39,783 nt of DNA from a virus (Duplodnaviria > Heunggongvirae > Uroviricota > Caudoviricetes). The DNA lies in the IMG/VR virus record IMGVR_UViG_2706794673_000014, one strand, 5' to 3'. Within the stretch, counting starts at the first letter, position 1; the number at the start of each line of letters is the position of its first letter. The notes under the pieces are model-generated. The model had not been told where the DNA came from. It saw only the letters and a program-made list of their open reading frames with translations, and made no database searches. A program made the translations under genes and the position numbers. Positions 1-39,286 of the stretch are shown piece after piece.

Positions 1-459
1 TTATTCAGTCGGCAGTGCTACGCGCCAGGGGAGCAGTTCGCCGACCCGGTTTATCGGCCAGTCGGCTATGACGTCAAGGACATAGCGGAGGTAGCTTTCT
101 GGCTCCACTCCGTTCAGTTTGCACGTCCCGATCAGGCTGTACAGCAGCGCTCCCCGCTCTCCTCCATGATCCGAACCGAAGAACAGGTAGTTTTTGCGGC
201 CCAGACTGACCATCCGCAACGCATTTTCAGCGATGTTATTGTCCGCCTCAGCCCAGCCATCATCTGCATAGTACGTCAGCGCCGGCCACTGGTTCAGGGC
301 ATATGCGAACGCTTTCGCCAGTTCTGAGTGTCGCGACAGGGTTTTCATCTTTTCACGCAGCCAGCTTTCCAGGGATTTCAGCAGCGGTTTCGTTTTCAAC
401 TGACGTTCGGCAAGGCGCTGTTTCAGCAGGAAGATGTCGTCAGAAGAGATGTCGTTCAT
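1..459 (-). pseudogene. tnpC: IS66-family transposase (TnpC/Orf3) C-terminal fragment, roughly the last 150 aa; 5' two-thirds absent
   Basis: Translation ends ...NIAENALR...GRKNYLFFGSDHGGERGALLYSLIGTCKLNGVEPESYLRYVLDVIADWP, as recalled for IS66 TnpC C-termini; stop at 1-3; in-frame stop upstream at 520-522. Confidence 0.8.
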
Positions 460-545
460 AAGCCCGTATTTTACCGGGCTTATTCTGTGACAACCAGGAT
501 AAAGAGATTTACAGCATGGTCAGGGAGGTCAGCAGCCGCTTAGGC

Positions 546-640
546 TGTCTATAGCGCGGCGATTTTTTTGATACCGATTTGCATTTCATTTGATACCGCT
601 GAAAAACGCCGATACGCAACTTATTTGATACTAAATCGGC
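546..640. repeat. Right-end (attR-like) terminal repeat region: three closely spaced TTTGATAC(C/T) motifs at 567-575, 589-597, 624-632
   Basis: Motif read directly; inverted copies at the other end (39253-39261, 39158-39166, 39106-39114); tight spacing matches Mu attR R1-R3. Confidence 0.7.
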
Positions 641-677
641 GCTTTTCTTTTGAGTTTTAGAATGAGTTTTTAAGCGT

Positions 678-1415
678 TCATTCACTCTCTTTCAAACCAG
701 TTTTAACTGTTTGTGGTTTTGGGTAAGGCTGGACTTTGAATAGCTTTGTGTTAAGGCGTTTTCTGGCTCTCTTGTCCAGAAACCGGATGTAACGAAACTG
801 ACGGAATTTATGAACACTGGCTCTGTCGATATTAGCCCGCAGATGTTCACCTCGCTGTCCTCCTCGTTTGATTGCATTCTTGCAAATCTCGTGATACCAC
901 TCGCCATCAAGTTCATAGAATGTTGTTTCATGACTGCCTACATAATCAAAATTGCTTGCCTGGTACACGACACCAAGACAGCCACAACGCTCATCTGCAA
1001 ACGACTGAACCCACTGCACCTGCGGATAAAGTTGTCTGATTAGTTTGAGCGCGTAACTGATTGCCCTTGATTCGGAGTTTCTCGGCATACAGTCATGCAG
1101 CCATAACCGGTTAAGCTCCATATATTCGCGGTTCTGCGTGCCAGTTACGACGCGTGCACCATTGTTTGGATTAAGGGCATAACCCCATTGCATTACGCCA
1201 ACCAGCTCCCGTTCTGAAAATATGCCCAGATGAAGGTAGGAATTATTTACGAAACGATGGCTGTAATGTTTATTGACGACGACCAGCCGGGCCAGCCAGC
1301 AACTTATTGTCTCAACCCGTAACTCACGGGAGCCATAACCGACGATATTGTCGTTATAGTGAATAAGTTCAGGCGTGCTGATGATACGGGATGTAACTTG
1401 CTTTCTGTTCCCCAC
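678..1415 (-). CDS. mom: Mom-like DNA modification protein; start uncertain (GTG at 1415 with AAGGA 9 nt upstream proposed; the ORF track extends to 1610)
   Basis: Terminal gene next to attR-like end, overlapped by com 3' end, GATC cluster upstream, ~245 aa; identity inferred from context, not sequence recall. Confidence 0.55.
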
Positions 1416-1569
1416 GACAGGATTTCCTTGTGTATGTGGGGTGCTCTGTGGCGCTCTGAGATGTGATTTGATTGAGGGTTTTACAGCGCGGACATTTAAC
1501 TTCCAGATAACTGAAGCTGGCTCGTGCCAGTAGCTTGTTACAATGTCGGCACCGTATGTTTCGATACAT
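1369..1569 (-). CDS. com: Com zinc-finger translational activator of mom
   Basis: [14 protein letters not shown]...EVKCPRCK...EHPT matches recalled Mu Com (IRCKNCNKLL...EIRCPRCK...EHPT); ATG at 1567-1569 preceded by AGGAGG; stop overlaps proposed mom start region. Confidence 0.8.
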
Positions 1570-6659: not shown

Positions 6660-7541
6660 TTATATACTTGCAGCCGTCACCCATGCTCCATTTAACAGAT
6701 ACTGCAACGGCCGGTAATACACGCCGCCGACGTTATCTGCCGTATTCTTACCGACATCCTGTACTTTAATTCCGGTAAGAACATTGCCGCCCCCCAGATT
6801 CAGATCCCAGCTTTCCCATGTTCCGGGCATATGTGCGGTCACCGACCCCAGTCTTATGGCGGTTACTGTTCCTGATGAGATAGTGATATCCTGCGTCCCG
6901 TCAAAGGGAACACCATTAATTGTGTGGGCATTTGCCAGCCTGTTCGCGGCAACGGCGGTGCCGTCCGATGGCAGGGCATTCGCCGCCCTGTTTACCGTTT
7001 CCCGTAAACCGACGTTATCGATAAAAGCCCCTTTATCCGGAATGTCTGCGCCGTTCTGCTCCCTGCGCAGGTAACGGTTATCACCTTCGCTTTTGCTGTA
7101 AACATCCAGATTATTACGGGCGGTTCCCTTATTCTCCAGGTCGGCGAGATTCTGATCCTTCGCCAGGGCATTAACGTCAGCGGGACCAAGACTGTTTTTT
7201 GTGGCAAGCGTCCCCAGACCAAGATAACCACGGGCCAGACGCTGGGCCTCCGCACCGGCATCAGCAATTTCTTTCAGGTTATTTTTCCGGGAAAAGGCAT
7301 TCGCAGCGATAATGGCTTTAATGGACAGCGTAAGCTGGTTTAACTGCGCCTTATCCGGCTGAATACTGGCTTCAGCCAGAATATTCAGCAGTTCGGCCTG
7401 GAGAATATTCAGCCAGTCCTGACCAATCCAGCTGATACCTTTTTGTCCGTCACCTTCGGTAAACCAGGTGGTGGTATTACTCTGCGCCGGTGCCAGCGCA
7501 GGCATATTCGCCACGCCGGAATTATTATCAACATGAAACAT
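6660..7541 (-). CDS. Tail fibre protein (Mu S-like); C-terminal ~75 aa encoded inside the invertible segment
   Basis: N-terminus [30 protein letters not shown] matches recalled Mu S; reading frame passes through gix site 2. Confidence 0.85.
6999..7024. repeat. gix-like recombination site 2 (TTCCCGTAAACC-GA-CGTTATCGATAA), core 7011-7012, inside the S gene
   Basis: Inverted relative to site 1; outer half-site TTATCGATAACG resembles recalled Mu gixL TTATCCAAAACC. Confidence 0.75.
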
Positions 7542-8101
7542 TAAATAGTCTCCTCTTCATGGCTGTTTGCATAAACGTAAATAAACGTCTGCCATGCAGG
7601 CTTATAACGGTTCAGAATACATTCCAGCGCACCGCCTTCATAAATACGCAGCGGCGTGAGAATATCATCCAGCACATTCATATTCCGGTAGCCGGTTTCA
7701 CTGTTAATCGTGACAATACTGACCCACTGCGAATCCGGTGAGGGCTGAATGTCAATCTGATAACCAAACTCCGCCGCAAACCGGATATAAAATTCACGGT
7801 TCAGCGAGGGCTTCATCCGGTATTTATTTCCGGCATAACGCTGTCGCTCCGTGAGGGTGGCTCCGGCCATATCACACTCGGGAAGCCCGAGATAACGCTC
7901 CCAGTCTTCCAGCAGCAGGCGCGACGTGTCAGGGAAACGCTCGGCAAGCAGCTGTTTACCCGTCCAGGATACACGCGCTGTCGAATGACTGAGGCCCAGA
8001 CATAATGATGCCAGTACGGATGACGGACGCTTGTCCCATGCCAGCCCGTCAGGCAGTAACTGCAACAGGGCGCGCTGATGCGGGGTCAGGGTTACAGCCA
8101 T
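7541..8101 (-). CDS. Tail/baseplate protein (Mu gp48-like)
   Basis: 186-aa ORF between baseplate J-like gene and tail fibre; gene order. Confidence 0.65.
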
Positions 8102-9192
8102 GTGATTTCTCCTACCGTCAGCAGCTCACTGTCTCCCGCCTGAACTGACGTCAGCGGACTGCGCACTTCAAAATCCTCCAGATTTTTCACCCCTGCCACC
8201 GCCCGCCAGAAAGACGACGGCAGAACCAGACCGCCGGGCCGGGATTCGTTATACAACAGGTCGGTCAGCGCCTGTTTTACGGCCGCCTGATTCTCCGGTG
8301 TTTTCGGGATGATCCTGATGCTGAAGGGCACCGGCTTATTGGTCAGTTTAAACACGGTCACCGTCGGCCCCAGAGGCTGTCCGACAGGCTGGCCGGTCGC
8401 CGGATCATCATGACTGCGGATATAATCCGCCACCCGCTGAACATCACCGTCACCGGGGAAAATATCCGGGTTATTATCCTGAACAAACGTTACCCCCACG
8501 CTGCCCGCCTGCGGCCATTCCGGGCGGCACCATGCCCGCGTCACGCCCGGCACTTCACGCGCCCAGCGTTCAAAATCATACTGCGTGCCGNNNNNNNNNN
8601 NNNNNNNNNNNNNNNNNNNNNNNNNNNNNNNNNNNNNNNNNNNNNNNNNNNNNNNNNNNNNNNNNNNNNNNNNNNNNNNNNNNNNNNNNNNNNNNNNNNN
8701 NNNNNNNNNNNNNNNNNNNNNNNNNNNNNNNNNNNNNNNNNNNNNNNNNNNNNNNNNNNNNNNNNNNNNNNNNNNNNNNNNNNNNNNNNNNNNNNNNNNN
8801 NNNNNNNNNNNNNNNNNNNNNNNNNNNNNNNNNNNNNNNNNNNNNNNNTAAACCACGCCATCACTTCGCTGGAGAAGCACACCTTCCTTGATCCCCGCAT
8901 CCGTGGTCAGCATCAGCTGAACCGGCCCGTCCCCCCGAGAGGCAGGCTTACGCATGACGCCCCAGAATGCACAGTGTTTCAGCAGTTCGGCTTCATCGGC
9001 TTCGGTCGGGATGATCTGACGCGCAATCCAGGCCAGATGCTCATGCTCCTGAGCAGATAACCCTGCCTGAGCGTAAGCAATGGCATTCAGGGTGGTTTCA
9101 TTCACACCCGGCTGCGAGCCGGGCAGGCGCTGGCTGATATCCTGCTGTGTCTGCGTGATTAACTGTGCCAGCGGTAAAGGCTGATAAGGCAT
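8092..9192 (-). CDS. Baseplate J-like protein (Mu gp47-like); interrupted by N-run 8591-8848
   Basis: Size and position in baseplate cluster; both flanks of the gap read as one frame. Confidence 0.7.
   Translation of the reverse strand: MPYQPLPLAQLITQTQQDISQRLPGSQPGVNETTLNAIAYAQAGLSAQEHEHLAWIARQIIPTEADEAELLKHCAFWGVMRKPASRGDGPVQLMLTTDAGIKEGVLLQRSDGVVXXXXXXXXXXXXXXXXXXXXXXXXXXXXXXXXXXXXXXXXXXXXXXXXXXXXXXXXXXXXXXXXXXXXXXXXXXXXXXXXXXXXXXXGTQYDFERWAREVPGVTRAWCRPEWPQAGSVGVTFVQDNNPDIFPGDGDVQRVADYIRSHDDPATGQPVGQPLGPTVTVFKLTNKPVPFSIRIIPKTPENQAAVKQALTDLLYNESRPGGLVLPSSFWRAVAGVKNLEDFEVRSPLTSVQAGDSELLTVGEITWL
8591..8848. other. Run of N (unsequenced or masked)
   Basis: Read directly. Confidence 1.
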
Positions 9193-9629
9193 TACTCCCC
9201 CTTAAGATCAGCATAAAAAATCATGGGCCTCACTGAACCATCAGGCAGGGTTATGCGCACCGAAAGCGCCAGCCGCGCGTGTCCCACACGTTCTGCATGA
9301 CAGACCACGGATGACGCCACGCCATCCTGACTGAGCCAGCCCAGCGCCTCATCCGCGTAAGCACGGGCACGGCTTATCACCGAGGCCAGCGTTTTTTCCC
9401 GGCTGAGAAGCCACAGACGGGAGCCAATGGGGCGCGGGCGAAAACTGTCTCCCCACCATCCCCGGCGGTCGCGCGTACCGTCAGGGATTTCATCCGATGC
9501 CAGCGCCCGGCGGTCAGTAAACAGCGAAATCAGAACGGCCGTCAGCAGACTGTCATCCGTCAGCAAGTCGGCACCGTTCAGTTGCAGCGAACCGCACCCC
9601 TGATCCCATACAATTGCAATATCAGCCAT
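9192..9629 (-). CDS. Baseplate protein (Mu gp46/W-like)
   Basis: ATG at 9627-9629 overlapping stop of upstream gene (ATGGCTGA); gene order. Confidence 0.65.
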   Translation of the reverse strand: MADIAIVWDQGCGSLQLNGADLLTDDSLLTAVLISLFTDRRALASDEIPDGTRDRRGWWGDSFRPRPIGSRLWLLSREKTLASVISRARAYADEALGWLSQDGVASSVVCHAERVGHARLALSVRITLPDGSVRPMIFYADLKGE

Positions 9630-10236
9630 TCTCCGGCGCTCCTGTCTTACTGCCTTTGCCGTTATCCTGATGCACATGGCCGGAATAGGTGATCCCGGCA
9701 ATAACGGCATCAGACATCGTGAACAGCCCGTCTGATTTACCTGTACCATCAAGCACGAAATTACCCTTAACATGCAGGTTTTTATCCACCGTCACATTGC
9801 CCGTAAAGGTGGCCTCCGGCGTATCCACCCGCATCCCCTCATCGGCGTAAATCTCCAGCATTTTGCATGTCACAATAATGCGACCATCCTTTGTTAACCG
9901 TATCCGGTGCCCCTCATGGTGATACACCCCCGTATCTCCGGCTGTGAGTCCGGTCGGGCGGCTGCGCCGGTCTTCCACCACAAGCACCACAGTCTGATCC
10001 CGCTGTCCGCCCAGACAGGCAAAAAAGGTTTCCGCACCCGGCAGGGGAACGCTGATCTGCCCGTACTGCTGGGGACGCTCCACATCATCAAAGGTTTCGC
10101 CGTCCATGCCGGTGAGCTGCACATTCTGCATTTTCAGTTCGTCATGTGTGCCGGTCAGAACGCCCCGGCCAAACAACAGGCGAATACCGCGCGTTACCGG
10201 GGCAATCAGGCGGCTGAACACTTCATCATTCATCAA
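9622..10236 (-). CDS. Baseplate assembly/spike protein V (Mu gp45-like)
   Basis: 204-aa ORF in baseplate cluster; gene order and size. Confidence 0.75.
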   Translation of the reverse strand: MMNDEVFSRLIAPVTRGIRLLFGRGVLTGTHDELKMQNVQLTGMDGETFDDVERPQQYGQISVPLPGAETFFACLGGQRDQTVVLVVEDRRSRPTGLTAGDTGVYHHEGHRIRLTKDGRIIVTCKMLEIYADEGMRVDTPEATFTGNVTVDKNLHVKGNFVLDGTGKSDGLFTMSDAVIAGITYSGHVHQDNGKGSKTGAPENG

Positions 10237-11350
10237 AGCTGATCCCCTGTTTTTTCATCTGCTGGCGAATAAAGGCATCAACATCGTCACCGGAACCACC
10301 CCGGCCCTTACTGTCCGGCTCTGCCGGAACGATAAAGCCGTCACGCGGTGCCAGTACCAGCCGGGTGACTTCCCCGTTATGTTCATCAAGTAAAAACTCC
10401 ACCTGACAGACCAGCAGTTCAGTCTGTTCTATACCGAAACGCAGGGCTGAAACACCGGTCAGCAGATTGACATCCCATAACCGGCCATCATCCCGGAACC
10501 AGCCACGCACGGTGGCAGAAAACCGTTCTGAACGGGCAATCGCACGGCGCATTTCACGCAGGGCACGCTGCCGTGCACCGGTGGTGTCTGTCTGTTGATC
10601 GGCGAGGATGATTTTCGACCGGTAGCGGCCGATCTGCTCATCACTGATGACGCCCACAGGTGCTGCCAGACGGGCGGCGGATTCGCTGTCTCCCCGTTTG
10701 CCACCACCGCGCCCGTGTCCCCGGACACGGTATTCGCTGTATCGTCCTCGCCAGTCCGTGTTGTAATCGGCATCAAGCAGGTTATCTCCCAGCACCAGTC
10801 TGTCCGTCTGCTGGCTTCCTGCCTGGGTGAACACCAGATCGCCGTCAGCATTACTGGTCACCAGCACCCCGCGATGCCGGGCAGCACGGGTCAGCGCATC
10901 CGCCACGGTTTCTGAGTTTTCCAGCGTAAAAGAGCTGAAGGGGCGTGCAGCCGTGTCGTCGTTAACCTGCCAGCGCACGGCTATCCCGAAGGGCGCACAT
11001 AAATCTGCGGCAATCTGTGCCAGCGTCCGGTTGCGCCACTGGCTGCCGGGATGGATGGCGGCACAGTCCACCAGGTCGCCGGTTTTATCCCGACCGCTGA
11101 TGCTGATCTGATGACGGGTTGCACTGATCCGCTGACTGACCTGATCCAGCCAGCCACTGATGACCGTCTGCCCGTTAATTCTGAGCGTCAGGGACTGACC
11201 GGTTCGCAGGGCTGAGGGGATGCGCTCACCGGGCAGCATCAGCCCCAGTTCAAACGACCCGGCCAGATGCTCCAGCGAGCGACGGACGCTGACCGTCAGC
11301 CAGCCGGAAAAAATACTGCCACCGATATACAGTTCAATCCTGCTGCTCAC
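10226..11350 (-). CDS. Baseplate hub/tail protein (Mu gp44-like)
   Basis: 374-aa ORF after DNA circularisation gene; gene order. Confidence 0.7.
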   Translation of the reverse strand: MSSRIELYIGGSIFSGWLTVSVRRSLEHLAGSFELGLMLPGERIPSALRTGQSLTLRINGQTVISGWLDQVSQRISATRHQISISGRDKTGDLVDCAAIHPGSQWRNRTLAQIAADLCAPFGIAVRWQVNDDTAARPFSSFTLENSETVADALTRAARHRGVLVTSNADGDLVFTQAGSQQTDRLVLGDNLLDADYNTDWRGRYSEYRVRGHGRGGGKRGDSESAARLAAPVGVISDEQIGRYRSKIILADQQTDTTGARQRALREMRRAIARSERFSATVRGWFRDDGRLWDVNLLTGVSALRFGIEQTELLVCQVEFLLDEHNGEVTRLVLAPRDGFIVPAEPDSKGRGGSGDDVDAFIRQQMKKQGISFDE

Positions 11351-12692
11351 TGATCACCTCCACGCTGCGGCCACCCGGAACAAAAACCGGATCGGGGATA
11401 TTGTTTCTGCGGACAAAATACTGCCAGCGACTGCTGTTGCCGGTGGCACGGTACAGCGTGACCAGTGCCGGTTCGGTGGTGCGAACCATGACCTGAAAAG
11501 CACCGGGAAGATGCACGCTCCGTGTGGTTAAATCTTCTGTCAGCGCAAGCCCTGCATCACGTAATGCAAGGGCAGTCCCGGTATAGCCCTGTGCGGACAG
11601 ATCCAGCACCTGTTGTTCCATGGCATCGCTCAAATCCCGGTTGATACGCTGCACATCAGCAGAACTTTCCAGCCAGGCCAGTCCGCCCGAACGGTCAGTA
11701 TCCTGAACGTGCGTCGTATTCTGCCGGATGACCTGATCCAGCAGTTTTCCGAGCGTCTGTGCCTGCGACACCAGGGTTGCACTCTGCATCACGCTCCGCA
11801 GCAGACGGATATTTTTCTGTGCCGCAGGCGTCAGGCCAATCAGGCGCTGTGGATCATCCTGTTCGCTGAGGGTGTAACGCAGGGAGGAAAGTGTGCGGTA
11901 CAGCTGCGGCATGGCCTGCTCTGCCATGCTGTCACGGTTTGTGGTCAGGCTGCCGGACGGCGTTCCGGCTTTTCCGGTCAGAGACAGGGAAGGATCGCCG
12001 GGCAGCCCGGTCAGCACGGCAAACATTCCGGCCAGCGATTCAGCCATGCGACGGGGCGCATTAATCAGGGCGGCGGCATTGCCTTTCAGGGCAGTAAAAC
12101 TGGCCGTAAAGGCACTGATATCCTGCACAATCCCCATCCCCGAAACGGCATTCTCCAGTGCATCAATCTTATCGCTGATGGTGTCGGTCATGGCCTGTAC
12201 ATCATGCAGACCGTCTGAAATCACCGTCCAGCCGTCTGAAAGCGTGTTAAACAGCTGATTCATTGCTGAGCCGCTTTTCTGCTCCAGCGCAGCTGCCGTA
12301 TCTTCTGCCACCGCAGGGGCGGTATCGTCACTGGCGGGGATCACGTTGATCGTGAACTCAACCGTTCCCTGCTCGCTGGCGTTATAACGGCTTTCAAAGC
12401 TGTTTATCAGCACGTTTAACGTGCCGTAATCCGGGTGCATCAGTTCACCGGCACCGGGTGCACGCAGCGCATCACGCAGGCGGCTTCGCTGTGTCTGAAG
12501 ATCGTCTCCGGTCACCAGAACCGTGAATGTGAACTCCGGGAGTTTTGGCCCCAGATCATCCGCACCGCCGCTTTCACGCAGTGGGTATTCACGGCGCACA
12601 ATGTTACGTCCGCCCCGTTCCCGCTGCTCCTGATAAACCAGGAACGGTACGCCACGAAAGGAGCCACGCCCCGGCGTGTCAGTAGAGGCCAT
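11334..12692 (-). CDS. DNA circularisation protein (Mu gp43/P-like)
   Basis: 452-aa ORF immediately after tape measure; gene order. Confidence 0.75.
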   Translation of the reverse strand: MASTDTPGRGSFRGVPFLVYQEQRERGGRNIVRREYPLRESGGADDLGPKLPEFTFTVLVTGDDLQTQRSRLRDALRAPGAGELMHPDYGTLNVLINSFESRYNASEQGTVEFTINVIPASDDTAPAVAEDTAAALEQKSGSAMNQLFNTLSDGWTVISDGLHDVQAMTDTISDKIDALENAVSGMGIVQDISAFTASFTALKGNAAALINAPRRMAESLAGMFAVLTGLPGDPSLSLTGKAGTPSGSLTTNRDSMAEQAMPQLYRTLSSLRYTLSEQDDPQRLIGLTPAAQKNIRLLRSVMQSATLVSQAQTLGKLLDQVIRQNTTHVQDTDRSGGLAWLESSADVQRINRDLSDAMEQQVLDLSAQGYTGTALALRDAGLALTEDLTTRSVHLPGAFQVMVRTTEPALVTLYRATGNSSRWQYFVRRNNIPDPVFVPGGRSVEVISEQQD

Positions 12693-14736
12693 AGTTCCCT
12701 CCGTTCCAGACGTTCACATCCAGGCCATGCTGTGCGGTATCATCCACATCAATACTGCGCGCCCGCCAGCCTTCAGGGGCAACAAGCTCCACCCGTGCGG
12801 CGGTTTTCGCGGTGGCCTGTCCGCCGTTTTCGTCACTGCCGCCACGCAGTTTCTGCCAGGCCTGCGTCAGCCAGCCCCCCAGATAATCACCGAGATAGCT
12901 GCCCACCGTGGAACCAATGGCAACCCCGACCGGACCGGCAGCCGCCCCCAGCGCGCCACCGGCGATACTTCCGGCAAGGGAACCCACGGCACCGGCTTTA
13001 TCGGCTGCACTGGCGCTGCTGTCCAGCAGTACAGGAGCCGCCATGGCACCGGCCCACAGGGCACCACCACCCAGCCGACCGGCACCACGGAACAGCCCGG
13101 CAAAACGCCCCAGCCCCATGCGGTTTCCGGCCGCCGTTAGCAGACCACCGGCACGGCTCATCATACGACCGAAGAAGCCCTGTTTACCGGCACTCTCCGC
13201 CAGTTGCTCACCGGCAGTCACGACGGTCGTGACACCCCGTCCACGTCCGGGGCCGCGTTTTTTACGGCCGCGCACGGTTTTGCCGTCACCGCTGACCACC
13301 ACATCCCCGCCACCTGAGGCCAGGCCACCCGCAGGCCAATTGGTGACCAGCACGGGCTGAACGGCAGCCGGATTTACCCCGGTAAGGAAATTCAGGAACC
13401 GGCCAGCGCGTCCGGGCTGCGTTCCCGGTACAGTGGTCTGCGGTTTGCGGAAGGGCGACGTCAGCACGGAGGTCATCGCCATGCCATAGCGTAAGGGGGT
13501 TGCGCCGAGACGTAATGCCCCCGTCCCCGCAAACCTGAGCACCTTCAGCGCACGGGAGGCGAGATACATATACATCAGGTACTTTGCGGCGGTCTGCGCA
13601 CCCTGACCAATGCGATCCAGCGCATCGCCATAACCGGCGTCGCGCAGTGCCTGAAGCGTTTCCCTGACTTTCTGAATGACCCGGTAAAAGCCGGTCGCAG
13701 CGTCTCTGGCATACTCAAATCCCTGATTCAGGGCTGAGGCCGTCTGTGTGGCCAGCTTATCCTGTAAGCCGCTTTTCTGTGCCGCATCAGCATAATCCAG
13801 AAAGCCTTTCAGGCTCTTTTTCAGGCTGTCAAACGGTCCCTTTGCCATCACCTCGCGGGCAAATCCGTCCCAGACATCGCCCATCATGGACGTCATTCCC
13901 GTCCAGGAATTCATGGCGTTTTTCTGGGCACCTTTTGCCTGTTCGGCCATCACCTGAAATAACAGGCGAATGCTGTCCGGTCCCAGTTTTCCTTTCTCGC
14001 CTTTCTCACGGATGATCTTCTGGTTTACACCCAGCTTATCGGCCAGCAACTGGTAAACGTTAATCCCGTATCCGGTCAGAATATTGGCGTCCGCTGCCTG
14101 GATACTCTGGCGGGCAAACATCTGTTTGAGTTGCAGGGACGCACCCTGTGCATCTGACAGTGACCAGCCGTGATAGCCGCCCTGATCCTGAAGCATGGTA
14201 ATAAAGCGACGGGCTTCCCTGTCACTCATACCGAACCCGCGACTGGAGGCGTATTCCTGCATAACCCCCGCCAGCCCCCAGGTGGTGTCTTTGGCGTTCT
14301 GTACCGCCCAGGCTTTCACTGCTTCCGTTTTTGCCGTATCGCCATGATTAATGGCGTTGAGACGCAGAATATAGTTCTCCATCTCTGCGGCCGGGCGGAT
14401 AAAGGCTTTATTAAACCCGTAGACCGCAGCCCCTCCCGCCAGCATCCCGTAAAGGTTGCTTATCCGCCCGATGGTGCCGGTAATGCTGCCCTGAAGGCGG
14501 TCAAAATCTGACGTCACCGTGCGGATACTGCCACGAACACCGGCAAGCGTTCGCTGCATACGGGAGCCGACAAGTTCTGTCTCCTGACCGGCACGACGTG
14601 CTGCATTTCCAAGACCACCCAGCCCCGTCCTGCCGGAACGGGAGAATGCCCCCAGCTCCTGTGACCACTGGCGGGATTTGGCAGAAATATTGCCGAGTAA
14701 ATCGACAATCAGGGAGGCTTTCAGGTTTTTTGCCAT
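12679..14736 (-). CDS. Tail tape measure protein
   Basis: 685-aa ORF, Gly/Ala-rich C-terminal repeats, between tail chaperone-like genes and baseplate genes. Confidence 0.8.
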   Translation of the reverse strand: MAKNLKASLIVDLLGNISAKSRQWSQELGAFSRSGRTGLGGLGNAARRAGQETELVGSRMQRTLAGVRGSIRTVTSDFDRLQGSITGTIGRISNLYGMLAGGAAVYGFNKAFIRPAAEMENYILRLNAINHGDTAKTEAVKAWAVQNAKDTTWGLAGVMQEYASSRGFGMSDREARRFITMLQDQGGYHGWSLSDAQGASLQLKQMFARQSIQAADANILTGYGINVYQLLADKLGVNQKIIREKGEKGKLGPDSIRLLFQVMAEQAKGAQKNAMNSWTGMTSMMGDVWDGFAREVMAKGPFDSLKKSLKGFLDYADAAQKSGLQDKLATQTASALNQGFEYARDAATGFYRVIQKVRETLQALRDAGYGDALDRIGQGAQTAAKYLMYMYLASRALKVLRFAGTGALRLGATPLRYGMAMTSVLTSPFRKPQTTVPGTQPGRAGRFLNFLTGVNPAAVQPVLVTNWPAGGLASGGGDVVVSGDGKTVRGRKKRGPGRGRGVTTVVTAGEQLAESAGKQGFFGRMMSRAGGLLTAAGNRMGLGRFAGLFRGAGRLGGGALWAGAMAAPVLLDSSASAADKAGAVGSLAGSIAGGALGAAAGPVGVAIGSTVGSYLGDYLGGWLTQAWQKLRGGSDENGGQATAKTAARVELVAPEGWRARSIDVDDTAQHGLDVNVWNGGNYGLY

Positions 14737-14739
14737 GGG

Positions 14740-14886
14740 TTACTGCTTCGTTCTGAGAATTTTTTCGGTCTGTCGGCAGTGCCGGTAAAGCTGCGATAAG
14801 GGGAGGTTAAGCGCCCACTCCGGGCCGCTTTTTGTCACCATCCCCAGCACAATTGCGGCTTCTTCAATCTGATCCCGGCACTGCAT
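14740..14886 (-). CDS. Small ORF (48 aa) between chaperone-like gene and tape measure
   Basis: ATG at 14884-14886 with GGGGG 8 nt upstream; overlaps upstream gene by 23 nt in the +1 frame. Confidence 0.35.
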   Translation of the reverse strand: MQCRDQIEEAAIVLGMVTKSGPEWALNLPLSQLYRHCRQTEKILRTKQ

Positions 14887-15354: not shown

Positions 15355-15765
15355 TTACTGGACACGGGTACTGGTGGCGCTGGCGAACTTCGCGGAGATA
15401 TCACCACCACCGTCAAGCGAGGCCGGTTCACTGCTCCAGGCCTTCGTCATCATGTGGACTTCACCGGTATCGGCCANNNNNNNNNNNNNNNNNNNNNNNN
15501 NNNNNNNNNNNNNNNNNNNNNNNNNNNNNNNNNNNNNNNNNNNNNNNNNNNNNNNNNNNNNNNNNNNNNNNNNNNNNNNNNNNNNNNNNNNNNNNNNNNN
15601 NNNNNNNNNNNNNNNNNNNNNNNNNNNNNNNNNNNNNNNNNNNNNNNNNNNNNNNNNNNNNNNNNNNNNNNNNNNNNNNNNNNNNNNNNNNNNNNNNNNN
15701 NNNNNNNNNNNNNNNNNNNNNNNNNNNNNNNNNNNNNNNNNNNNNNNNNNNNNNNNNNNNNNCTT
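15355..15765 (-). CDS. Tail tube protein (only C-terminal ~40 aa visible; remainder in N-run 15477-15762)
   Basis: Open frame ending ...GGGDISAKFASATSTRVQ with stop at 15355-15357; located between sheath and chaperone. Confidence 0.4.
   Translation of the reverse strand, partial: KXXXXXXXXXXXXXXXXXXXXXXXXXXXXXXXXXXXXXXXXXXXXXXXXXXXXXXXXXXXXXXXXXXXXXXXXXXXXXXXXXXXXXXXXXXXXXXXXADTGEVHMMTKAWSSEPASLDGGGDISAKFASATSTRVQ
15477..15762. other. Run of N (unsequenced or masked)
   Basis: Read directly. Confidence 1.
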
Positions 15766-15768
15766 ACC

Positions 15769-17280
15769 TCACAAAATGAAACGGATCTGCGCGGCCATGA
15801 AGCGGAACTGGTTAACCAGATCCGGTGTACACATCACATCCAGACGGTTACGNNNNNNNNNNNNNNNNNNNNNNNNNNNNNNNNNNNNNNNNNNNNNNNN
15901 NNNNNNNNNNNNNNNNNNNNNNNNNNNNNNNNNNNNNNNNNNNNNNNNNNNNNNNNNNNNNNNNNNNNNNNNNNNNNNNNNNNNNNNNNNNNNNNNNNNN
16001 NNNNNNNNNNNNNNNNNNNNNNNNNNNNNNNNNNNNNNNNNNNNNNNNNNNNNNNNNNNNNNNNNNNNNNNNNNNNNNNNNNNNNNNNNNNNNNNNNNNN
16101 NNATCCAGATAGCTGGGATCGATTTCGCCGTATGCATTCTGACGGTACATCGTCACCTGACGTTCAATCTGCACCACATCCGCGGCCGCGACGGTCACCG
16201 TGGACATGCCGGTATAAAGCAGGCTGTTTCGCTCTTCCCGCGTCAGACGATCCGGTGCTTCAGGTGCCATACGGGCAGGCAGCGCCAGTGTCTGTAATGG
16301 TCGGGCCGGATCCGTTGACAGGGAGGGCGCACAGACCGCACAAATGGAGGCAGCCCAGACATAATCCGGCTCTGGTGCTTTAGGAATAGAAGTGCAGGTA
16401 AACAGGAAGTCATTACGGGATTCACCAAAACTGGTTGCCGTACCGAAGGTGCCGGTATGCGCCATCCAGACCATACCGTCCGACATTTTTACCGGTCCCC
16501 AGCGTTTCAGCAGTTCATCCGCCAGAATTTTGAGATTTGCCGCATCCTTATAGGGCATGACGATGTAGTTGTACTGACGATTCCCCATCCCTGAGACGCT
16601 ACGGGTGATATCGGGGTTTGTTGCCTTCTGTGTTGGCGCGACGAGCTCCAGCGTAAGACCGGCCGGTGTAGTTTCACCGTCATAATAGTTCACCCGTAAA
16701 TCATGAGCTGAGCATTCACCGATAAAGCGGGCGTTAACCCCCATGCTGCCTTTAAGTCCTTCAGCATTATCACCACTGACTTCAGCTGCGATAGCAGTGA
16801 ATGGCGCATCAGTGTCAGCGTTAATGACCTTNNNNNNNNNNNNNNNNNNNNNNNNNNNNNNNNNNNNNNNNNNNNNNNNNNNNNNNNNNNNNNNNNNNNN
16901 NNNNNNNNNNNNNNNNNNNNNNNNNNNNNNNNNNNNNNNNNNNNNNNNNNNNNNNNNNNNNNNNNNNNNNNNNNNNNNNNNNNNNNNNNNNNNNNNNNNN
17001 NNNNNNNNNNNNNNNNNNNNNNNNNNNNNNNNNNNNNNNNNNNNNNNNNNNNNNNNNNNNNNNNNNNNNNNNNNNNNNNNNCTTGTGAAGCTCGGGTAAT
17101 ACGTACTGGTACATCAAGCTGACCGCGCCCCTGAATGGTAGTGTCTTTCATTGCAGCCTGACCAAACAACAGTACCGCCTGACGCTGTGGTGGAGTGCCG
17201 GTCACGGCCATTGAATTATTGATTTCAATCTGTACCAGCGGAATGCGATTGTTATCGCCGATATAATCAAAGTTAATCAT
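15769..17280 (-). CDS. Contractile tail sheath protein (Mu L-like); interrupted by two N-runs
   Basis: N-terminus MINFDYIGDNNRIPLVQIEINNSMAVTGTPPQRQAVLLFGQ is typical of sheath N-termini; C-terminal frame ends ...AAQIRFIL at 15769; frames differ across gaps. Confidence 0.75.
15853..16102. other. Run of N (unsequenced or masked)
   Basis: Read directly. Confidence 1.
16832..17081. other. Run of N (unsequenced or masked)
   Basis: Read directly. Confidence 1.
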
Positions 17281-29195: not shown

Positions 29196-29699
29196 TCATG
29201 GTGTTCTCTGAGTCAGCGTAACCGTGAGGAAAAGGGGGCAGGATTTGCGGAATATCANNNNNNNNNNNNNNNNNNNNNNNNNNNNNNNNNNNNNNNNNNN
29301 NNNNNNNNNNNNNNNNNNNNNNNNNNNNNNNNNNNNNNNNNNNNNNNNNNNNNNNNNNNNNNNNNNNNNNNNNNNNNNNNNNNNNNNNNNNNNNNNNNNN
29401 NNNNNNNNNNNNNNNNNNNNNNNNNNNNNNNNNNNNNNNNNNNNNNNNNNNNNNNNNNNNNNNNNNNNNNNNNNNNNNNNNNNNNNNNNNNNNNNNNNNN
29501 NNNNNNNNNNNNNNNNNNNNNCCGCCTGAGCAGGTTCAATCCCCTGACGGTGCAGTTCAGCACTGATCACATCAACCAGGTCCCGCAGCGTGCCGGGCCA
29601 GTTCTTTTTCAGCTCATCATCAGGAATATCATCCAGACGGTCAATCAGCGCGTGCAGCTGTTCGCTGTCACCAAACATGCTCATCTGTGTTTCAGCCAT
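29196..29699 (-). CDS. Mor/C-family transcription activator; only the N-terminal ~59 aa (29521-29699) are readable, the rest lies in N-run 29258-29520
   Basis: N-terminus MAETQMSMFGDSEQLHALIDRLDDIPDDELKKNWPGTLRDLVDVISAELHRQGIEPAQA resembles recalled Mu Mor; position between gemA and lys. Confidence 0.6.
   Translation of the reverse strand: MAETQMSMFGDSEQLHALIDRLDDIPDDELKKNWPGTLRDLVDVISAELHRQGIEPAQAXXXXXXXXXXXXXXXXXXXXXXXXXXXXXXXXXXXXXXXXXXXXXXXXXXXXXXXXXXXXXXXXXXXXXXXXXXXXXXXXXXXXXXXXXIFRKSCPLFLTVTLTQRTP
29258..29520. other. Run of N (unsequenced or masked)
   Basis: Read directly. Confidence 1.
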
Positions 29700-33915: not shown

Positions 33916-34473
33916 TTACCCCTGTTGATTAAATTCATTACCGTTAATAACCCCGGAAGCCATGCCTCTGTCTTTCATGAATGCACTGGCTTNNNNNNNN
34001 NNNNNNNNNNNNNNNNNNNNNNNNNNNNNNNNNNNNNNNNNNNNNNNNNNNNNNNNNNNNNNNNNNNNNNNNNNNNNNNNNNNNNNNNNNNNNNNNNNNN
34101 NNNNNNNNNNNNNNNNNNNNNNNNNNNNNNNNNNNNNNNNNNNNNNNNNNNNNNNNNNNNNNNNNNNNNNNNNNNNNNNNNNNNNNNNNNNNNNNNNNNN
34201 NNNNNNNNNNNNNNNNNNNNNNNNNNNNNNNNNNNNNNNNNNNNNNNNNAACCGAATCATGGCATTAAAGGCTTCTTCCTCCGTCACCGCTTCCGGTATC
34301 CCCGGAACCAGTAACTGCTCCTGTTCATCACGTCCATGACGCGCCATAACCTCAATCACATGCCGTACCGTGGCAGGCTTTCCGGCAACTATCGGCAATG
34401 CACCTTCCGGCAGGACGTAACCAAACTCAATAAGACCACTCGACCACGCCCATGCAATGAGATTTTTTTTCAC
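33916..34473 (-). CDS. Hypothetical early protein, interrupted by N-run 33993-34249
   Basis: N-terminal 74 aa readable; remainder within gap. Confidence 0.45.
   Translation of the reverse strand: MKKNLIAWAWSSGLIEFGYVLPEGALPIVAGKPATVRHVIEVMARHGRDEQEQLLVPGIPEAVTEEEAFNAMIRXXXXXXXXXXXXXXXXXXXXXXXXXXXXXXXXXXXXXXXXXXXXXXXXXXXXXXXXXXXXXXXXXXXXXXXXXXXXXXXXXXXXXXXASAFMKDRGMASGVINGNEFNQQG
33993..34249. other. Run of N (unsequenced or masked)
   Basis: Read directly. Confidence 1.
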
Positions 34474-34474
34474 C

Positions 34475-34741
34475 TCACACCTCCCAGTAAACCGTGCAGC
34501 CGCTGATGCGGGTGGCCTTCACACGGCGGCGCAGGCCGTTGGTCTGTATGGTGATTTCAATTTCACCGGTTCCCTGCACGTTGCCTACCGGCGGCGTGGT
34601 TTTCAGTGCAAAACGTTGCGGATAGCGCTTACTGCGTTCCAGTACCGCACCGGCAAGTTCGGTCAGACGGCGCGCGCTGTTCAGGGAGTCGAATAAATTC
34701 ATTTTGTTACCGCAGGATTGCATATTCATATAACACCTCAT
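34475..34741 (-). CDS. Hypothetical early protein, 88 aa
   Basis: ORF in early operon. Confidence 0.45.
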   Translation of the reverse strand: MRCYMNMQSCGNKMNLFDSLNSARRLTELAGAVLERSKRYPQRFALKTTPPVGNVQGTGEIEITIQTNGLRRRVKATRISGCTVYWEV

Positions 34742-34969
34742 TTAGCTGACTTGTTTCGCACCAACAGAACGGCATATTCCGCTGTAAACTTCTGTCGCAC
34801 CTTCGCGATCAAGTCCGGCAGATATCACCATTCGTGTGCGGTCATTAAATTCAAAAAGTAAATCGCCACATTCTTTATTTTCGGCCAGTGAAATCACCTT
34901 CACGTTATCGAAATTAACCAGGTAAAAGCGTCCGTAAATATCAGGAATATTAAATACCGCCATAATCAC
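34742..34969 (-). CDS. Hypothetical protein, 75 aa, at the position and size of Mu kil
   Basis: First gene after B; size ~74 aa as in Mu kil; position only. Confidence 0.4.
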   Translation of the reverse strand: MIMAVFNIPDIYGRFYLVNFDNVKVISLAENKECGDLLFEFNDRTRMVISAGLDREGATEVYSGICRSVGAKQVS

Positions 34970-35907
34970 ACCTGTGAGAGTAATTCAGGGTTGGTATAAA
35001 CCTCTTTAAAGGCCGCATTAATATGTTTTTCTGTCAGCGCCGCGCCTTCACCGCTGGCGGTGAGCCACGCCTGGTTAAGCGTATGTGTCAGAACGCGTAA
35101 CGCTCCCGGCTTTTCAGCGATAGCCTGCATGACGGCCAGCTCGGCCTCACCACTGATCCCCCACGCCATGGCAATGGCCAGCACATCCGCCTTTTTGGCC
35201 TTGCGAAGTTGTTTTGTACGGGCAAGACGGCTGAACAGGCGCGATAAATCATCAAAGGCGCGGCGTCCACCTTTAAACAATCCGCGCGGGTTACCAATAA
35301 GCACCATCCCGATCCCCGTGGCGTCCTGAATTGCCCGGAGTTGCTCCAGACCGTCAATACCAAGATGATCCGCCTCATCCACAATCACCAGTCCACGCGT
35401 TCCCATCAGGCGACGGCGGATGGCGCGGGATAATGCCCCTTTGTTCGCGCGGGTGTAATCAATCCCCAGCGCATCGGCCAGCTCCAGCAGACACTCCGTG
35501 ACGCTGGAGTGCGCGGGTGACAGGGTGATCATCCAGGTGTTTGGTTGCTCCTGGCAGTAATTACGGGCAGTGGCCGTTTTACCCACACCCGGTACGCCCA
35601 CAATAACGTTAATACAGCCCATCAGGCGAACCGCCTGAAACAGTGCGCGCAGCTCCTGGACTGTCTGAGTTTCCACAAACTGCGGCGGTTCCGGCAGTGC
35701 GCTTTGTTTATTCCAGTTCTCATACCAGGAGCGCAGGGAAGCAGCCACAGCAGCGTTATCGCCTTTATATTTTCCCTTACGGAAAGCCGATAATGTGCCG
35801 TCGGAAATTCCCGCCTCTCTGGCGATGGCATACTGCGTCAGTACGCCGCCATCAATAAGTTCATCAATGGTCTTGATTACATCGTTAATATCGGTCATAT
35901 TATTCAC
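34966..35907 (-). CDS. B: MuB-like AAA+ transposition target-capture ATPase
   Basis: Walker A VGVPGVGKT, LVIVDEADHLG Walker B, ...KPGALRVL...; closely matches recalled Mu B. Confidence 0.92.
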   Translation of the reverse strand: MNNMTDINDVIKTIDELIDGGVLTQYAIAREAGISDGTLSAFRKGKYKGDNAAVAASLRSWYENWNKQSALPEPPQFVETQTVQELRALFQAVRLMGCINVIVGVPGVGKTATARNYCQEQPNTWMITLSPAHSSVTECLLELADALGIDYTRANKGALSRAIRRRLMGTRGLVIVDEADHLGIDGLEQLRAIQDATGIGMVLIGNPRGLFKGGRRAFDDLSRLFSRLARTKQLRKAKKADVLAIAMAWGISGEAELAVMQAIAEKPGALRVLTHTLNQAWLTASGEGAALTEKHINAAFKEVYTNPELLSQV

Positions 35908-35980
35908 CTCGCTTGAGACAGCATTCTCCGAGACTGAAACCTCAAATAACCTGAGTCACCCCTCGGGTTATTTTTTTATT

Positions 35981-38068
35981 TCAGGCCAGCGGATCACTTT
36001 CTTTTAATTTCGCTTCGAGCAGTTGCAATCCCCGCTGGAAATTACGCTCGTATTCTTCATCAGGTTCATCGTCAGCGACCGGTTGCTGAACGGTCACCGT
36101 ATTACCCACAGGGCGGTATATGTTTTCCAGCCAGGGCTCCTGCGGCTTGTGCTCCAGCACGTTGACAACCTCATCCTCGGCATCACGGATTTTTTCCTCT
36201 GCGCGTTTACGCATGCCTTTAAGGCGCTGCTGCTGTTTGTAGTATTCCGCGCTGACAGGGAAGGCTTCGCGTTTATTGCCGTCCCATACCGCCTCGCAAA
36301 TCACGCTGCCATCCGGGCGGCGCACGGTAATTCGTTCGGCATCATGAATGTCATAGCTGATAAGTACCTTACGGCCATGCTCGTCACGCAGCTCGGGCGC
36401 GTAGTAAATATTATTCAGCCAGCGTATTTCACAGCGTCTTACAGGGCGCTCCACCATCGGCCGGAACATATCCCGCAGTTCAACATCGGACAGCCATTCA
36501 ATTTCCGTGTCCTCTTCCGCCAGGCGTTTTTTTCTGAACTCCGCCGGGCTGTAATGTTTACCGTTCGGCTTCATGGGTAATTCATCGTGCGGCCGGTTGT
36601 TGTACCACTCAACACCGTCACGAATGGCATCAATCAGTTCAGACCAGGACGGTAAATCACGCATCGCTGACTGCTGCCGGGCGTTCAGCCGTTTGCCCTG
36701 TTGCAGGGCACTGAATGCCGAGCGTAAATCGCGGTTGGTTTTACGTAACGTCTCGCGATCTGCTCCTTTCCCGAAATAGGTGCGGTATTTACGGGCTATG
36801 CGCATCGGTAATGTGCGGTTAAGCCGTTCGATAATGCCCCGTCCCTGCGGATTACCGGCAATCCCTGTCGGGTGATTAATCCCCAGTCGTGGCAGTATCC
36901 CCACAATCTCCTTATCCAGGACGTCGGCGGTTTCCCCGGAGCCATTATCCGAGTAATACAGAAACGGTTTGCCATGATGGCGAATACCGTGCTGTATGGC
37001 ACCGGCTACGGCGAAAACATTTTCAGCCAGGTCAAGGCTCCAGCCCACCACAAAGCGCGTGCCACCGTCGATAACAAAGGTCACTTCCGGTGCGAATGGC
37101 CGCCCGTGAACCGGGTGCGCGCATTTCAGCTTCATGCCGTGACCGTCACCAATCCAGACATAATTCACCGGCATTCTGGACCAGTCGCGGCGCGTGAATC
37201 CCTCAAGCTGACGGTATTCACTGCCAGTTACCCGGCCTTTTTGTTTCACCACTTCCGGCAGTTTCTTCATTGCGCGGCGAATGGTGTCATAAGAGGGCAT
37301 GATATCGAGCATATAAGGCTCATCAGCGTGCCGGTGCTGCCATTCAGCAACAAAATCCTCGTAAGCCTCGGTCATTGGTCGGCCGTTTGACTGGCGATAC
37401 TGCGCCAGAAATTCGGGCAGCCAGTTAATATCTTCGGCTTTTATTTCCTGGCGTTTACCCGGTGCCAGTAAAAGCAGGCGTTCAGCGGCGTTCTGTGCCT
37501 TGTTAAAGGCCGCAATCCAGCGTTTCAGCGTGATTTCACTCAACGCGCGGCTGTTTCCCTTTTTGGCGTTCGCCGTCTCAACCATTGCCACAATGCGCTC
37601 GTCCAGTTGTGATCGTGCCAGGCTGTTAACGAGGAACCGGATAGCTTTAGCGCAGCTGAAACCGGGTTGTTGCGTGAATTTCAGCACCTCACTGACGATC
37701 GCAATGCGTGCGTCTGCCACCTGGCGCTGGTTTTCAGTCAGGGCATTGAGGCGTTCGACCATCAGTTGTGGTGATCCGCGATATGCCTCCACCGCATCAA
37801 CCACGGCAGACGAGCGTCTGGCCTTTGTCACCACCGGAGCCGGTGATTCATCGGCTTTTTGCGTCATCAGTTGCAGGGCATAACGTTCGCGTAATGCCTG
37901 CTGTGTCACTTCAGGTAAACAGTCAATGCTGTATTCAAAACCTTTAGCGCCTTTCTTGCGGCGTCTGCTGGTTTCGCTGGTTGCATACTTCCTGATTGAA
38001 TAGCGAACGCCTTGCTCCGTTCCCGGCATCCCCGGTAATCCAACCAGTTCTTTAACTGAAGCAAACAT
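35981..38068 (-). CDS. A: MuA-like DDE transposase
   Basis: 695-aa ORF between ner and B; N-terminal end-binding-like region; length and order as Mu A. Confidence 0.93.
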   Translation of the reverse strand: MFASVKELVGLPGMPGTEQGVRYSIRKYATSETSRRRKKGAKGFEYSIDCLPEVTQQALRERYALQLMTQKADESPAPVVTKARRSSAVVDAVEAYRGSPQLMVERLNALTENQRQVADARIAIVSEVLKFTQQPGFSCAKAIRFLVNSLARSQLDERIVAMVETANAKKGNSRALSEITLKRWIAAFNKAQNAAERLLLLAPGKRQEIKAEDINWLPEFLAQYRQSNGRPMTEAYEDFVAEWQHRHADEPYMLDIMPSYDTIRRAMKKLPEVVKQKGRVTGSEYRQLEGFTRRDWSRMPVNYVWIGDGHGMKLKCAHPVHGRPFAPEVTFVIDGGTRFVVGWSLDLAENVFAVAGAIQHGIRHHGKPFLYYSDNGSGETADVLDKEIVGILPRLGINHPTGIAGNPQGRGIIERLNRTLPMRIARKYRTYFGKGADRETLRKTNRDLRSAFSALQQGKRLNARQQSAMRDLPSWSELIDAIRDGVEWYNNRPHDELPMKPNGKHYSPAEFRKKRLAEEDTEIEWLSDVELRDMFRPMVERPVRRCEIRWLNNIYYAPELRDEHGRKVLISYDIHDAERITVRRPDGSVICEAVWDGNKREAFPVSAEYYKQQQRLKGMRKRAEEKIRDAEDEVVNVLEHKPQEPWLENIYRPVGNTVTVQQPVADDEPDEEYERNFQRGLQLLEAKLKESDPLA

Positions 38069-38070
38069 AA

Positions 38071-38301
38071 TTACGCGACCTTACGAATGTAGCGGCTGGG
38101 CCAAATCTCCTCGGGCGGCACCCCCAGGCATTCCGCGATAATCCCCTCATACTTGGGAACATGGCGGTATACCGCGTTGTACAGATTGTTCTGACCCACG
38201 CCAGCTTTACGGGCCAGCGCCCTCATGCTTCCTTCTCTGGCTCTGACTTCCCCCAAAATTCTTTGAGGATGCCAATCAGGCTTAACTTCATTTCTCGCCA
38301 T
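38071..38301 (-). CDS. ner: Ner-like DNA-binding regulator
   Basis: ...DWHPQRILGEVRAREGSMRALARKAGVGQNNLYNAV...EEIWPSRY matches recalled Mu Ner (DWH...IWPSRY). Confidence 0.9.
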   Translation of the reverse strand: MARNEVKPDWHPQRILGEVRAREGSMRALARKAGVGQNNLYNAVYRHVPKYEGIIAECLGVPPEEIWPSRYIRKVA

Positions 38302-38331
38302 GATTCATCTATCCTAAAAAGTTACGAAATT

Positions 38332-38353
38332 TGATAACTAAACTTAGTTATCA
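38332..38353. promoter_or_regulatory. Perfect 22-bp palindrome TGATAACTAA-AC-TTAGTTATCA in the ner/repressor intergenic region; putative operator
   Basis: Read directly; lies between divergent ner and repressor genes where Mu carries its operators. Confidence 0.5.
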
Positions 38354-38486
38354 AGTTTGATATAAGTATTGATCCACTTCTGCTTCATGTAAAGCAAAAA
38401 AAACATCTTTCTTTTGTCTATTGTGGATCAATGGTTGCTGACAACACTAAAAGTTAATAATTTCAAATTGATAGGAAGAAAAGAAA

Positions 38487-39032
38487 ATGAACAAGCAAAC
38501 AACAACATCTCTTTCTTTTCCTGGTGGTAGAAAAGAAAGCATTGCTGAGCGTCTGAAAAGGCTGATTGGCTCCCGCAGCGTCAGAGCTGCAGCAAGAGAT
38601 TGGGGGCTTTCATTTTCAACACTAAACAATTATCTGTCTCGTGGCACTGAGCCATCCTTAAGTGTCGCCCTTCAGATTGCGTCTATCGAAGGAGTAAGTG
38701 TTGAGTGGCTATGTGGATTCAGTGATGCATCACAAGTGAATCGGTGTGAGATCAAGGAAAATCAAGATGAAAGCAAGAAGATAATTATGACGATTATCAG
38801 CGCACTTGATGAAAAAGACTTAGAGCAGCTATCGAAAAATTTGGTTCTGAATGGAGCCAAGTACTTAGCTCGGTTGTTAGAGCCTGAAAATCAAGATCTA
38901 ATCCGCTTAGAAGGAAGGAAAAGAATAGCTGCATTACAGCTTGAAGGTATGTCTGACGAACGCGTCAGAGAGATTTTGGAAGAAACTGAGAGAAGTCGCA
39001 AATCTAACGCGGTAGAACCAAAAGCGGGTTAA
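38487..39032 (+). CDS. Prophage repressor (HTH DNA-binding protein, functional analogue of Mu c)
   Basis: Divergent from ner, reads toward the phage end as Mu c does; HTH-like AAARDWGLSFSTLNNYLSRGTEPSLSVALQIA; AT-rich. Confidence 0.75.
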   Translation: MNKQTTTSLSFPGGRKESIAERLKRLIGSRSVRAAARDWGLSFSTLNNYLSRGTEPSLSVALQIASIEGVSVEWLCGFSDASQVNRCEIKENQDESKKIIMTIISALDEKDLEQLSKNLVLNGAKYLARLLEPENQDLIRLEGRKRIAALQLEGMSDERVREILEETERSRKSNAVEPKAG

Positions 39033-39105
39033 TAGCATTAGCCCGCATTTTGCACTATATCGAGTATTTCGCATTGTTTGGAACGCCTTAAAAGACTAAA
39101 ACCAC

Positions 39106-39286
39106 AGTATCAAATGAGTTGCCGATTTTATAATAAATGACTAATTATTGCACAATCGGTATCAAATAGACCTTATCCGCACATCTAGCCATCACCTGTT
39201 TTATTTCAGTATCTTACAGGTGATTTCACCTCCTTTCACTAAACCCCTTGTCGGTATCAAATGATTCACCTGGTTATATGTCGCCA
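39106..39286. repeat. Left-end (attL-like) terminal repeat region: one GGTATCAAA motif at the terminus (39253-39261), two more 95 and 147 bp inward (39158-39166, 39106-39114)
   Basis: Inverted copies of the right-end motif; spacing (one terminal site, gap, two internal) matches Mu attL L1-L3. Confidence 0.7.

Follow-up and report, generated by a model that had tools for sequence, protein, structure and literature searches.

A 38.7-kb Mu-like prophage in tnpB of a decayed IS66 element of a Shigella sonnei-type chromosome

Genes of the prophage and of its IS66 flanks

The window, by which we mean the whole 39,783-nt stretch of DNA analyzed here, contains a 38.7-kb Mu-like prophage that is a clean, ordinary insertion into tnpB of an already decayed IS66 copy on a chromosome of the Shigella sonnei type. 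As delimited by the ends of its relatives and by its Pfam-annotated genes, this Sp18-like transposable prophage spans 38,729 bp (550-39278, minus strand). Because mom and com lie at the left side of the window, that side corresponds under the Mu convention to the right end of the phage, placing the right (mom) end at position 550 and the left (repressor) end at 39278. Pfam matches at 678-1614 identify the com-mom module, with mom, the DNA-modification gene (678-1415, minus strand; Mom, E = 7.8e-78, in agreement with the annotation of relatives), and com, encoding a zinc-ribbon translational activator of mom (1369-1569, minus strand; Zn_ribbon_Com, E = 1.3e-12; coordinates mapped from a relative's annotation). 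These matches bear out the initial annotation, made from the sequence before any database search, in which the right end of a prophage abutted IS66 DNA.

Toward the opposite end, Pfam identifies a repressor (38487-39032, plus strand) and a Ner-like regulator (38071-38301, minus strand), followed by a MuA-like DDE transposase of 695 amino acids (35981-38068, minus strand; Mu-transpos_C, E = 2.1e-17; HTH_Tnp_Mu_1, E = 1.3e-08) and a MuB-like ATPase (34966-35907, minus strand; Phage-MuB_C, E = 7.8e-25, with an AAA domain). When searched against the PDB with phmmer, the transposase matched the N-terminal domain of MuA (1tns, E = 6.8e-06) and, weakly, retroviral-integrase cores; its core had no match to that of MuA. 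Rfam and ARAGORN detected no RNA family or tRNA anywhere in the window; three related prophages (L009, L010 and L011) carry an 80-nt RefSeq "tRNA-OTHER" feature between the head-morphogenesis and virion-morphogenesis genes (e.g., L010, 21064-21143). Six masked runs of N, each of 250-286 nt, interrupt the prophage (8591-8848, 15477-15762, 15853-16102, 16832-17081, 29258-29521 and 33993-34249). The last of these (257 bp) accounts for an apparent divergence from loci L020 and L021, which have 250 bp of ordinary early-region sequence there; it reflects masking in the window and not biology.

The flanks retain the tnpA-tnpB-tnpC order and IS66 domains, according to both Pfam and existing annotation, with the window starting at the tnpC stop codon and ending inside tnpA, so that the inverted repeats of the IS66 element fall outside it. 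To the left of the prophage, a tnpC remnant of 152 codons (1-459, minus strand; ATG at 459-457, stop at 3-1), defined by its open reading frame, Pfam and alignment, is followed by the 49-nt tnpB-tnpC intergenic spacer (460-508, minus strand), recognized by alignment to IS66 elements, and by the 3' end of tnpB (509-549, minus strand), made up of the final two bases of codon 103, all of codons 104-115 (QPKRLLTSLTML) and a TAA at 511-509. The stretch 460-549 is IS66 spacer and tnpB coding sequence, and neither phage nor unassigned DNA. The in-frame stop noted earlier at 520-522 does exist, as a TGA at 522-520 lying 21 codons upstream of the tnpC ATG, within the coding sequence of tnpB. To the right, 39279-39783 is 99.6% identical to the tnpB and tnpA of annotated IS66. 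Here a truncated tnpB (39266-39589, minus strand; TnpB_IS66, E = 1.2e-37) consists of 103 native codons, four codons supplied by the phage end (HITR) and a stop, and the 3' part of tnpA (39586-39783, minus strand), assigned from the annotated tnpA under the BLAST match, runs off the window.

The spacer contains a hairpin (458-483, minus strand) with a perfect 9-bp stem and an 8-nt loop, and the 86-nt fold around it has a predicted energy of -22.1 kcal/mol (z = -2.4). The AU of the tnpC start codon, AUG, forms part of the 3' arm, so that this hairpin may be a translational control element of the insertion sequence.

The prophage ends, the target duplication and the empty site

BLAST of window positions 1-700 against annotated IS66 elements yielded two colinear pieces. 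Positions 1-420/422 match the 3' end of tnpC at 99.8% in an ISEc22-type copy and at 99.3% in the IS66 of the O104:H4 pAA plasmid, and positions 405-549, which cover the start of tnpC, the spacer and the 3' end of tnpB, are 99.3% identical to an ISEc8-type copy and 98.6% identical to pAA. A hybrid origin of the left flank from two different IS types was considered and set aside as an artifact of two BLAST pieces joined in plasmids with tandem IS66 copies; upon re-alignment, a single mosaic parent type, that of the O104:H4 pAA plasmid, accounts for both halves. Identity to IS66 ends at 549 and does not continue through 560, placing the boundary between prophage and host exactly at 549/550, at the upper edge of the range of about 460 to 550 that had been proposed for the junction. 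On the other side, tnpB continues colinearly from 39279. By alignment and translation, the insertion point is codon 104 of the 115-codon tnpB, and not tnpC: window positions 39589-39281 translate to TnpB residues 1-103, and 547-509 to residues 104-115 followed by the stop.

Placed on IS66 reference coordinates by BLAST and re-alignment, the flanks share exactly four bases, TGTC, which we assign from this overlap and from the empty site as the two copies of the target-site duplication (546-549 and 39279-39282, plus strand). A 5-bp duplication, obtained by shifting the boundary one base in either direction, was rejected, as it fails in most of eight independent insertions of the family and against the empty site. 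These eight insertions lie in flgL, citF, xdhA, bcsA, a diguanylate cyclase gene, a restriction-enzyme gene, elyC/ydcF and IS66 tnpB, and all eight show 4-bp direct repeats (TGTC, CGTC, GGTA, TCTA, CGTA, TGCG, CGAA and CACA). The related prophages at these unrelated loci begin and end at the bases corresponding to 550 and 39278, with the element always starting TATAGCG and ending GGTTATA in seven of the eight cases and GGTTACA in one; the GGTTACA repressor end belongs to the variant in E. coli JE86-ST02 (L023). The canonical Mu signature of TG...CA termini and a 5-bp duplication is replaced here by TATA...TATA and 4 bp, a difference that excludes "Mu sensu stricto" as a description of this phage, not "Mu-like".

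The right end opens with a terminal inverted repeat, TATAGCGCGGCGATTTTTTTGATACCGA (550-577, plus strand), which is identical at 21 of 28 positions to the reverse complement of 39251-39278. Similarity between the termini had been thought to extend to about 546. The inverted match instead begins at 550 with TATA, and positions 546-549 are the directly repeated TGTC, which has no inverted match. A motif scan locates three putative transposase-binding repeats of the form TTTGATAC(C/T)(G/A) at the mom end (567-576, 589-598 and 624-633, plus strand), the first of which, TTTGATACCG at 567-576, stands where the initial annotation had put its first motif, and three more at the repressor end (39252-39261, 39157-39166 and 39105-39114, minus strand). 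Allowing at most one mismatch, the decamer TTTGATACCG is found at 11 places in the window where 2.05 would be expected, a count reached in none of 100 shuffles. Counted inward from base 550, the repeats of the mom end start at 17, 39 and 74 nt; counted inward from base 39278, those of the repressor end start at 17, 112 and 164 nt. Each end has three putative sites, the first motif starts on the 18th base at both termini, and the first repeat of the left end stands some 95 bp apart from the other two.

A scan of 400-1700 for promoters and terminators gave nothing above shuffle expectation. Directly downstream of the mom stop is a 13-nt inverted repeat (601-613 and 635-647; 92% complementary, 21-nt spacer), which the terminator scan did not call; it lies between the second end repeat and the third (624-633), and its right arm begins 2 nt past the latter.

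To examine the locus without the phage, we rebuilt the empty site by joining 1-549 to 39283-39783, which leaves out the prophage and one TGTC. This 1050-bp sequence is identical at 1050 of 1050 positions, without gaps, to four existing loci (L012, L013, L015 and L018) and at 1049 of 1050 to four others, among them HE616528.1, which is S. sonnei 53G (PMC10673971). This empty site holds a single TGTC. The full-length match therefore fixes the phage bounds at exactly 550 and 39278 and the duplication at exactly 4 bp. In the phage-free loci, an intact 115-aa TnpB is encoded directly upstream of an identical 152-aa TnpC remnant. No full-length tnpA was called there between tnpB and an upstream IS3-family element, only an open reading frame of at most 76 codons, and the gene calls thus suggest that tnpA is truncated in these loci.

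Exact-sequence protein look-up placed the 152-aa TnpC product in 457 assembly blocks. We read eight loci among its carriers, seven on chromosome-scale contigs of 4.8-5.0 Mb and one on a 67.7-kb contig, and in all eight an ipaH-type gene (LRR_TTSS and NEL domains) lies on the same contig. The 107-aa product of the truncated tnpB fused to the phage end was found by the same exact look-up in 110 assembly blocks, including the complete chromosome CP176614.1 and a 48-kb contig; these two were compared with the window over roughly 8.3 kb, where identity was 99.98-100%. It follows that the insertion is real, has been assembled many times independently and is confined to some of the deletion-bearing genomes. 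Exact-pattern scans of GTDB representative genomes and of IMG/VR for the phage/IS66 junction and the tnpC deletion junction returned 0 matches, a similar scan of JGI metagenomes returned none for the phage/IS66 junction, and a plasmid collection held no contiguous junction.

The S. sonnei 53G locus (L014, HE616528.1, approximately 7125-12459), where the tnpB site is empty, has a different Mu-like prophage about 660 bp away, situated in a phage tail-fibre gene in the same orientation and encoding a 176-aa repressor. This neighbor is about 78% identical to the window at the repressor end and 99.4% identical across much of the transposase and the downstream early genes (34250-37937).

The tnpC deletion and the origin of the locus

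Compared with the intact 512-aa TnpC of the pAA copy, the 152-codon tnpC of the window consists of native codons 1-18 (MNDISSDDIFLLKQRLAE) fused in frame to the last 134 codons, with 360 internal codons (1080 bp, in frame) missing. The initial annotation recognized only the last 150 or so codons of tnpC; the open reading frame is indeed 152 codons long and covers the C-terminal third of the domain, yet it also keeps the native start and owes its length to an internal deletion. Pfam matches the remnant to DDE_Tnp_IS66 only at profile positions 195-283 of 284 (E = 5e-29) and to DDE_Tnp_IS66_C (E = 2.1e-17), and at 152 versus 512 amino acids it falls short of the full-length DDE transposase of a functional IS66. 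The remaining frame lacks most of the catalytic domain, the host element was non-functional before the phage arrived, and because this IS66 copy was already dead, the insertion was probably neutral.

The deletion endpoints in the intact gene are two 17-bp direct repeats, TTCGGC(A/C)AGGCGCTGTT, which are identical at 16 of 17 positions, lie 1080 bp apart and encode QRLAE at residues 14-18 and 374-378. Alignment to both parts of the pAA copy shows a hybrid repeat, TTCGGCAAGGCGCTGTT, at the junction (406-422), with the crossover within 413-422. We infer that the 1080 bp were lost between these imperfect direct repeats, through either RecA-dependent recombination or replication slippage. The contiguous deletion junction was present in 0 of 5426 complete E. 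coli genomes. As the empty-site loci carry the deletion in the absence of the phage, the deletion is older than the prophage and was not caused by it.

Together, these observations lead us to propose, with roughly 95% confidence, that strand transfer by a DDE transposase inserted an Sp18-family phage at the 3' end of tnpB in a chromosomal IS66 of the ISEc8/ISEc22 type that had already lost part of tnpC. The tnpC of this element would first have shed 1080 bp between its 17-bp repeats; the phage would later have cut its target with a 4-bp stagger at TGTC, within codons 103-104 of the 115-codon tnpB, leaving TGTC on either side of the 38,729-bp prophage. Since the transposase is only remotely MuA-like, that the phage works like Mu is something we infer from gene content and end architecture; these features and the duplication suggest integration by the phage's own MuA- and MuB-like proteins, presumably acting on the three putative repeats at each end. 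Of this account, the sequences show directly where the junction lies, that 4 bp are duplicated, that both flanks are colinear, that the empty site exists and that the tnpC deletion occurs in phage-free genomes. Nothing we found contradicts the insertion model; the TA-3' ends and 4-bp duplication of the prophage depart from those of canonical Mu (CA-3', 5 bp).

The initial annotation placed the junction in a truncated tnpC, as if the prophage had entered that gene and removed or separated its first 370 or so codons, with 460-549 as junction or phage-terminal DNA. Such a reading draws on the fact that only a 152-codon tnpC is left beside the phage and on the in-frame TGA at 522-520, but the open reading frame begins with the ATG and initial 18 codons of native tnpC, 460-549 matches the spacer and the 3' end of tnpB in IS66 elements at 98.6-99.3% identity, and the right flank is tnpB, not tnpC. 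Phage-free chromosomes, moreover, have the same 152-aa TnpC beside an intact tnpB, and the 1050/1050 empty-site match refutes an insertion into tnpC, to which we assign practically no probability.

Two further accounts are very improbable. Transposable phages such as Mu generate deletions beside their ends, and the tnpC deletion, only about 130 bp from the terminus, might be attributed to intramolecular replicative transposition of this prophage end. Mu-type adjacent deletions, however, begin exactly at the phage terminus, whereas here the distance between deletion junction and phage end is 128-137 bp, and 128 bp of intact, colinear IS66 DNA (422-549) separate the two. The endpoints of the deletion are 17-bp direct repeats, and the deletion is found without the phage; every phage-free carrier would have to have lost the prophage precisely, which to our knowledge Mu-like phages essentially never do. 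It is just as hard to credit that the flanks derive from two IS66 copies, brought together by recombination between prophage copies, inversion or mis-assembly, with TGTC shared by coincidence. Some E. coli genomes do carry several copies of the phage with ends far apart, and IS66 copies are numerous, but the joined flanks are 100% identical to one contiguous locus, and 110 blocks, a complete chromosome among them, have independent assemblies of the same fusion frame. Integration into tnpB of an already tnpC-deleted element remains our reading of the locus.

For annotation, this means that the prophage bounds are fixed to the base at 550-39278, with TGTC as the target-site duplication, and that two errors are averted: a tnpC described as "truncated by the phage" and positions 460-549 described as phage DNA. 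The insertion is also a clean presence/absence marker, found in 110 blocks against 457 with the older tnpC deletion, and on these counts it could be used to mark a lineage among Shigella sonnei-type genomes. Neither partner is new in kind, and public assemblies already contain this very insertion.

Relation to Sp18, IS66, Mu and other transposable phages

Of 5426 complete E. coli genomes, 233 have the mom end (550-1650), beside many different host genes, and together they carry roughly 290 copies of the prophage family. Ten records match this end at 100% identity and O157:H7 prophages match all 1101 bp of it at about 95.7%, and the repressor end with the immunity region is more variable among members of the family. 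In a phage collection we found no isolated phage of the Sp18-like type, only two Stx-phage records bearing an inserted relative of about 91% identity. Sp18 of E. coli O157:H7 Sakai, to which we liken this prophage by published size and behavior, measures 38,759 bp compared with 38,729 bp here, and Sp18 and its relatives (e.g., Phi804-3) are Mu-like prophages with strain-specific integration sites (PMC7430833; PMC2669165). The gene order, from repressor, ner, A and B through to com and mom, is that of these relatives, and the insertion site differs, being IS66 tnpB in a Shigella-type chromosome. Sizes and behavior fit the Sp18 group, and we place the prophage in an Sp18-like family.

The flanks are equally recognizable as IS66 of the ISEc8/ISEc22 type, being 98.6-99.8% identical to known copies with tnpA, tnpB and tnpC in order. 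Next to the intact mosaic parent type on the O104:H4 pAA plasmid, with its 512-aa TnpC, the copy described here is a wreck, its tnpC without 360 internal codons and its tnpB split by the phage. The reverse situation occurs in E. coli 23CRST047 (L011), where a related prophage has itself been struck twice by IS66-family elements (12349-14765 and 36880-39215): ISEc43 sits in the gene for the DNA circularization protein, and ISEc22 lies in the early region.

The likeness to Mu extends across the MuB-like ATPase, Mu-transpos_C, HTH_Tnp_Mu_1, Ner, Com and Mom, and includes a short target duplication of fixed length at many insertion sites. The attR of Mu is a contiguous R1-R3 array and its attL is split into L1 and L2-L3; the prophage similarly has three putative transposase-binding repeats per end, contiguous at the mom end and with the first one set apart at the repressor end. 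It differs from Mu in its 5'-TA...TA-3' termini (TG...CA in Mu), its 4-bp duplication (5 bp in Mu), a transposase core without MuA similarity detectable by phmmer and a putative site consensus, TTTGATACCG, unrelated to that of Mu.

These differences raise the possibility that the Sp18-like phages of Escherichia and Shigella represent a distinct transpososome type, with TA-3' (occasionally CA-3') ends, a 4-bp stagger and a core not recognizably MuA-like, a tentative proposal that we hold at somewhat under even odds. A full-text literature search of incomplete coverage returned nothing relevant on a Mu-like phage with a 4-bp duplication, and the TA-3'/4-bp signature is a possible minor novelty that we do not consider established. 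A 2021 paper states that, until a TA-TA group came to light in Leptospira, every known Mu- and B3-like phage had kept TG-CA ends (PMC8705779); the transposable prophages of this WETA1 group have a TA dinucleotide at both ends, B3/Tn552-family transposases and 6-bp duplications (PMC8705779). If undescribed, the 4-bp duplication with TA termini would add a variant of transposable-phage integration geometry in a common enterobacterial Mu-like family, one that shares its TA ends with the Leptospira WETA1 group and differs from it in pairing them with Mu-type accessory domains and 4 bp, in place of a B3/Tn552 transposase and 6 bp.
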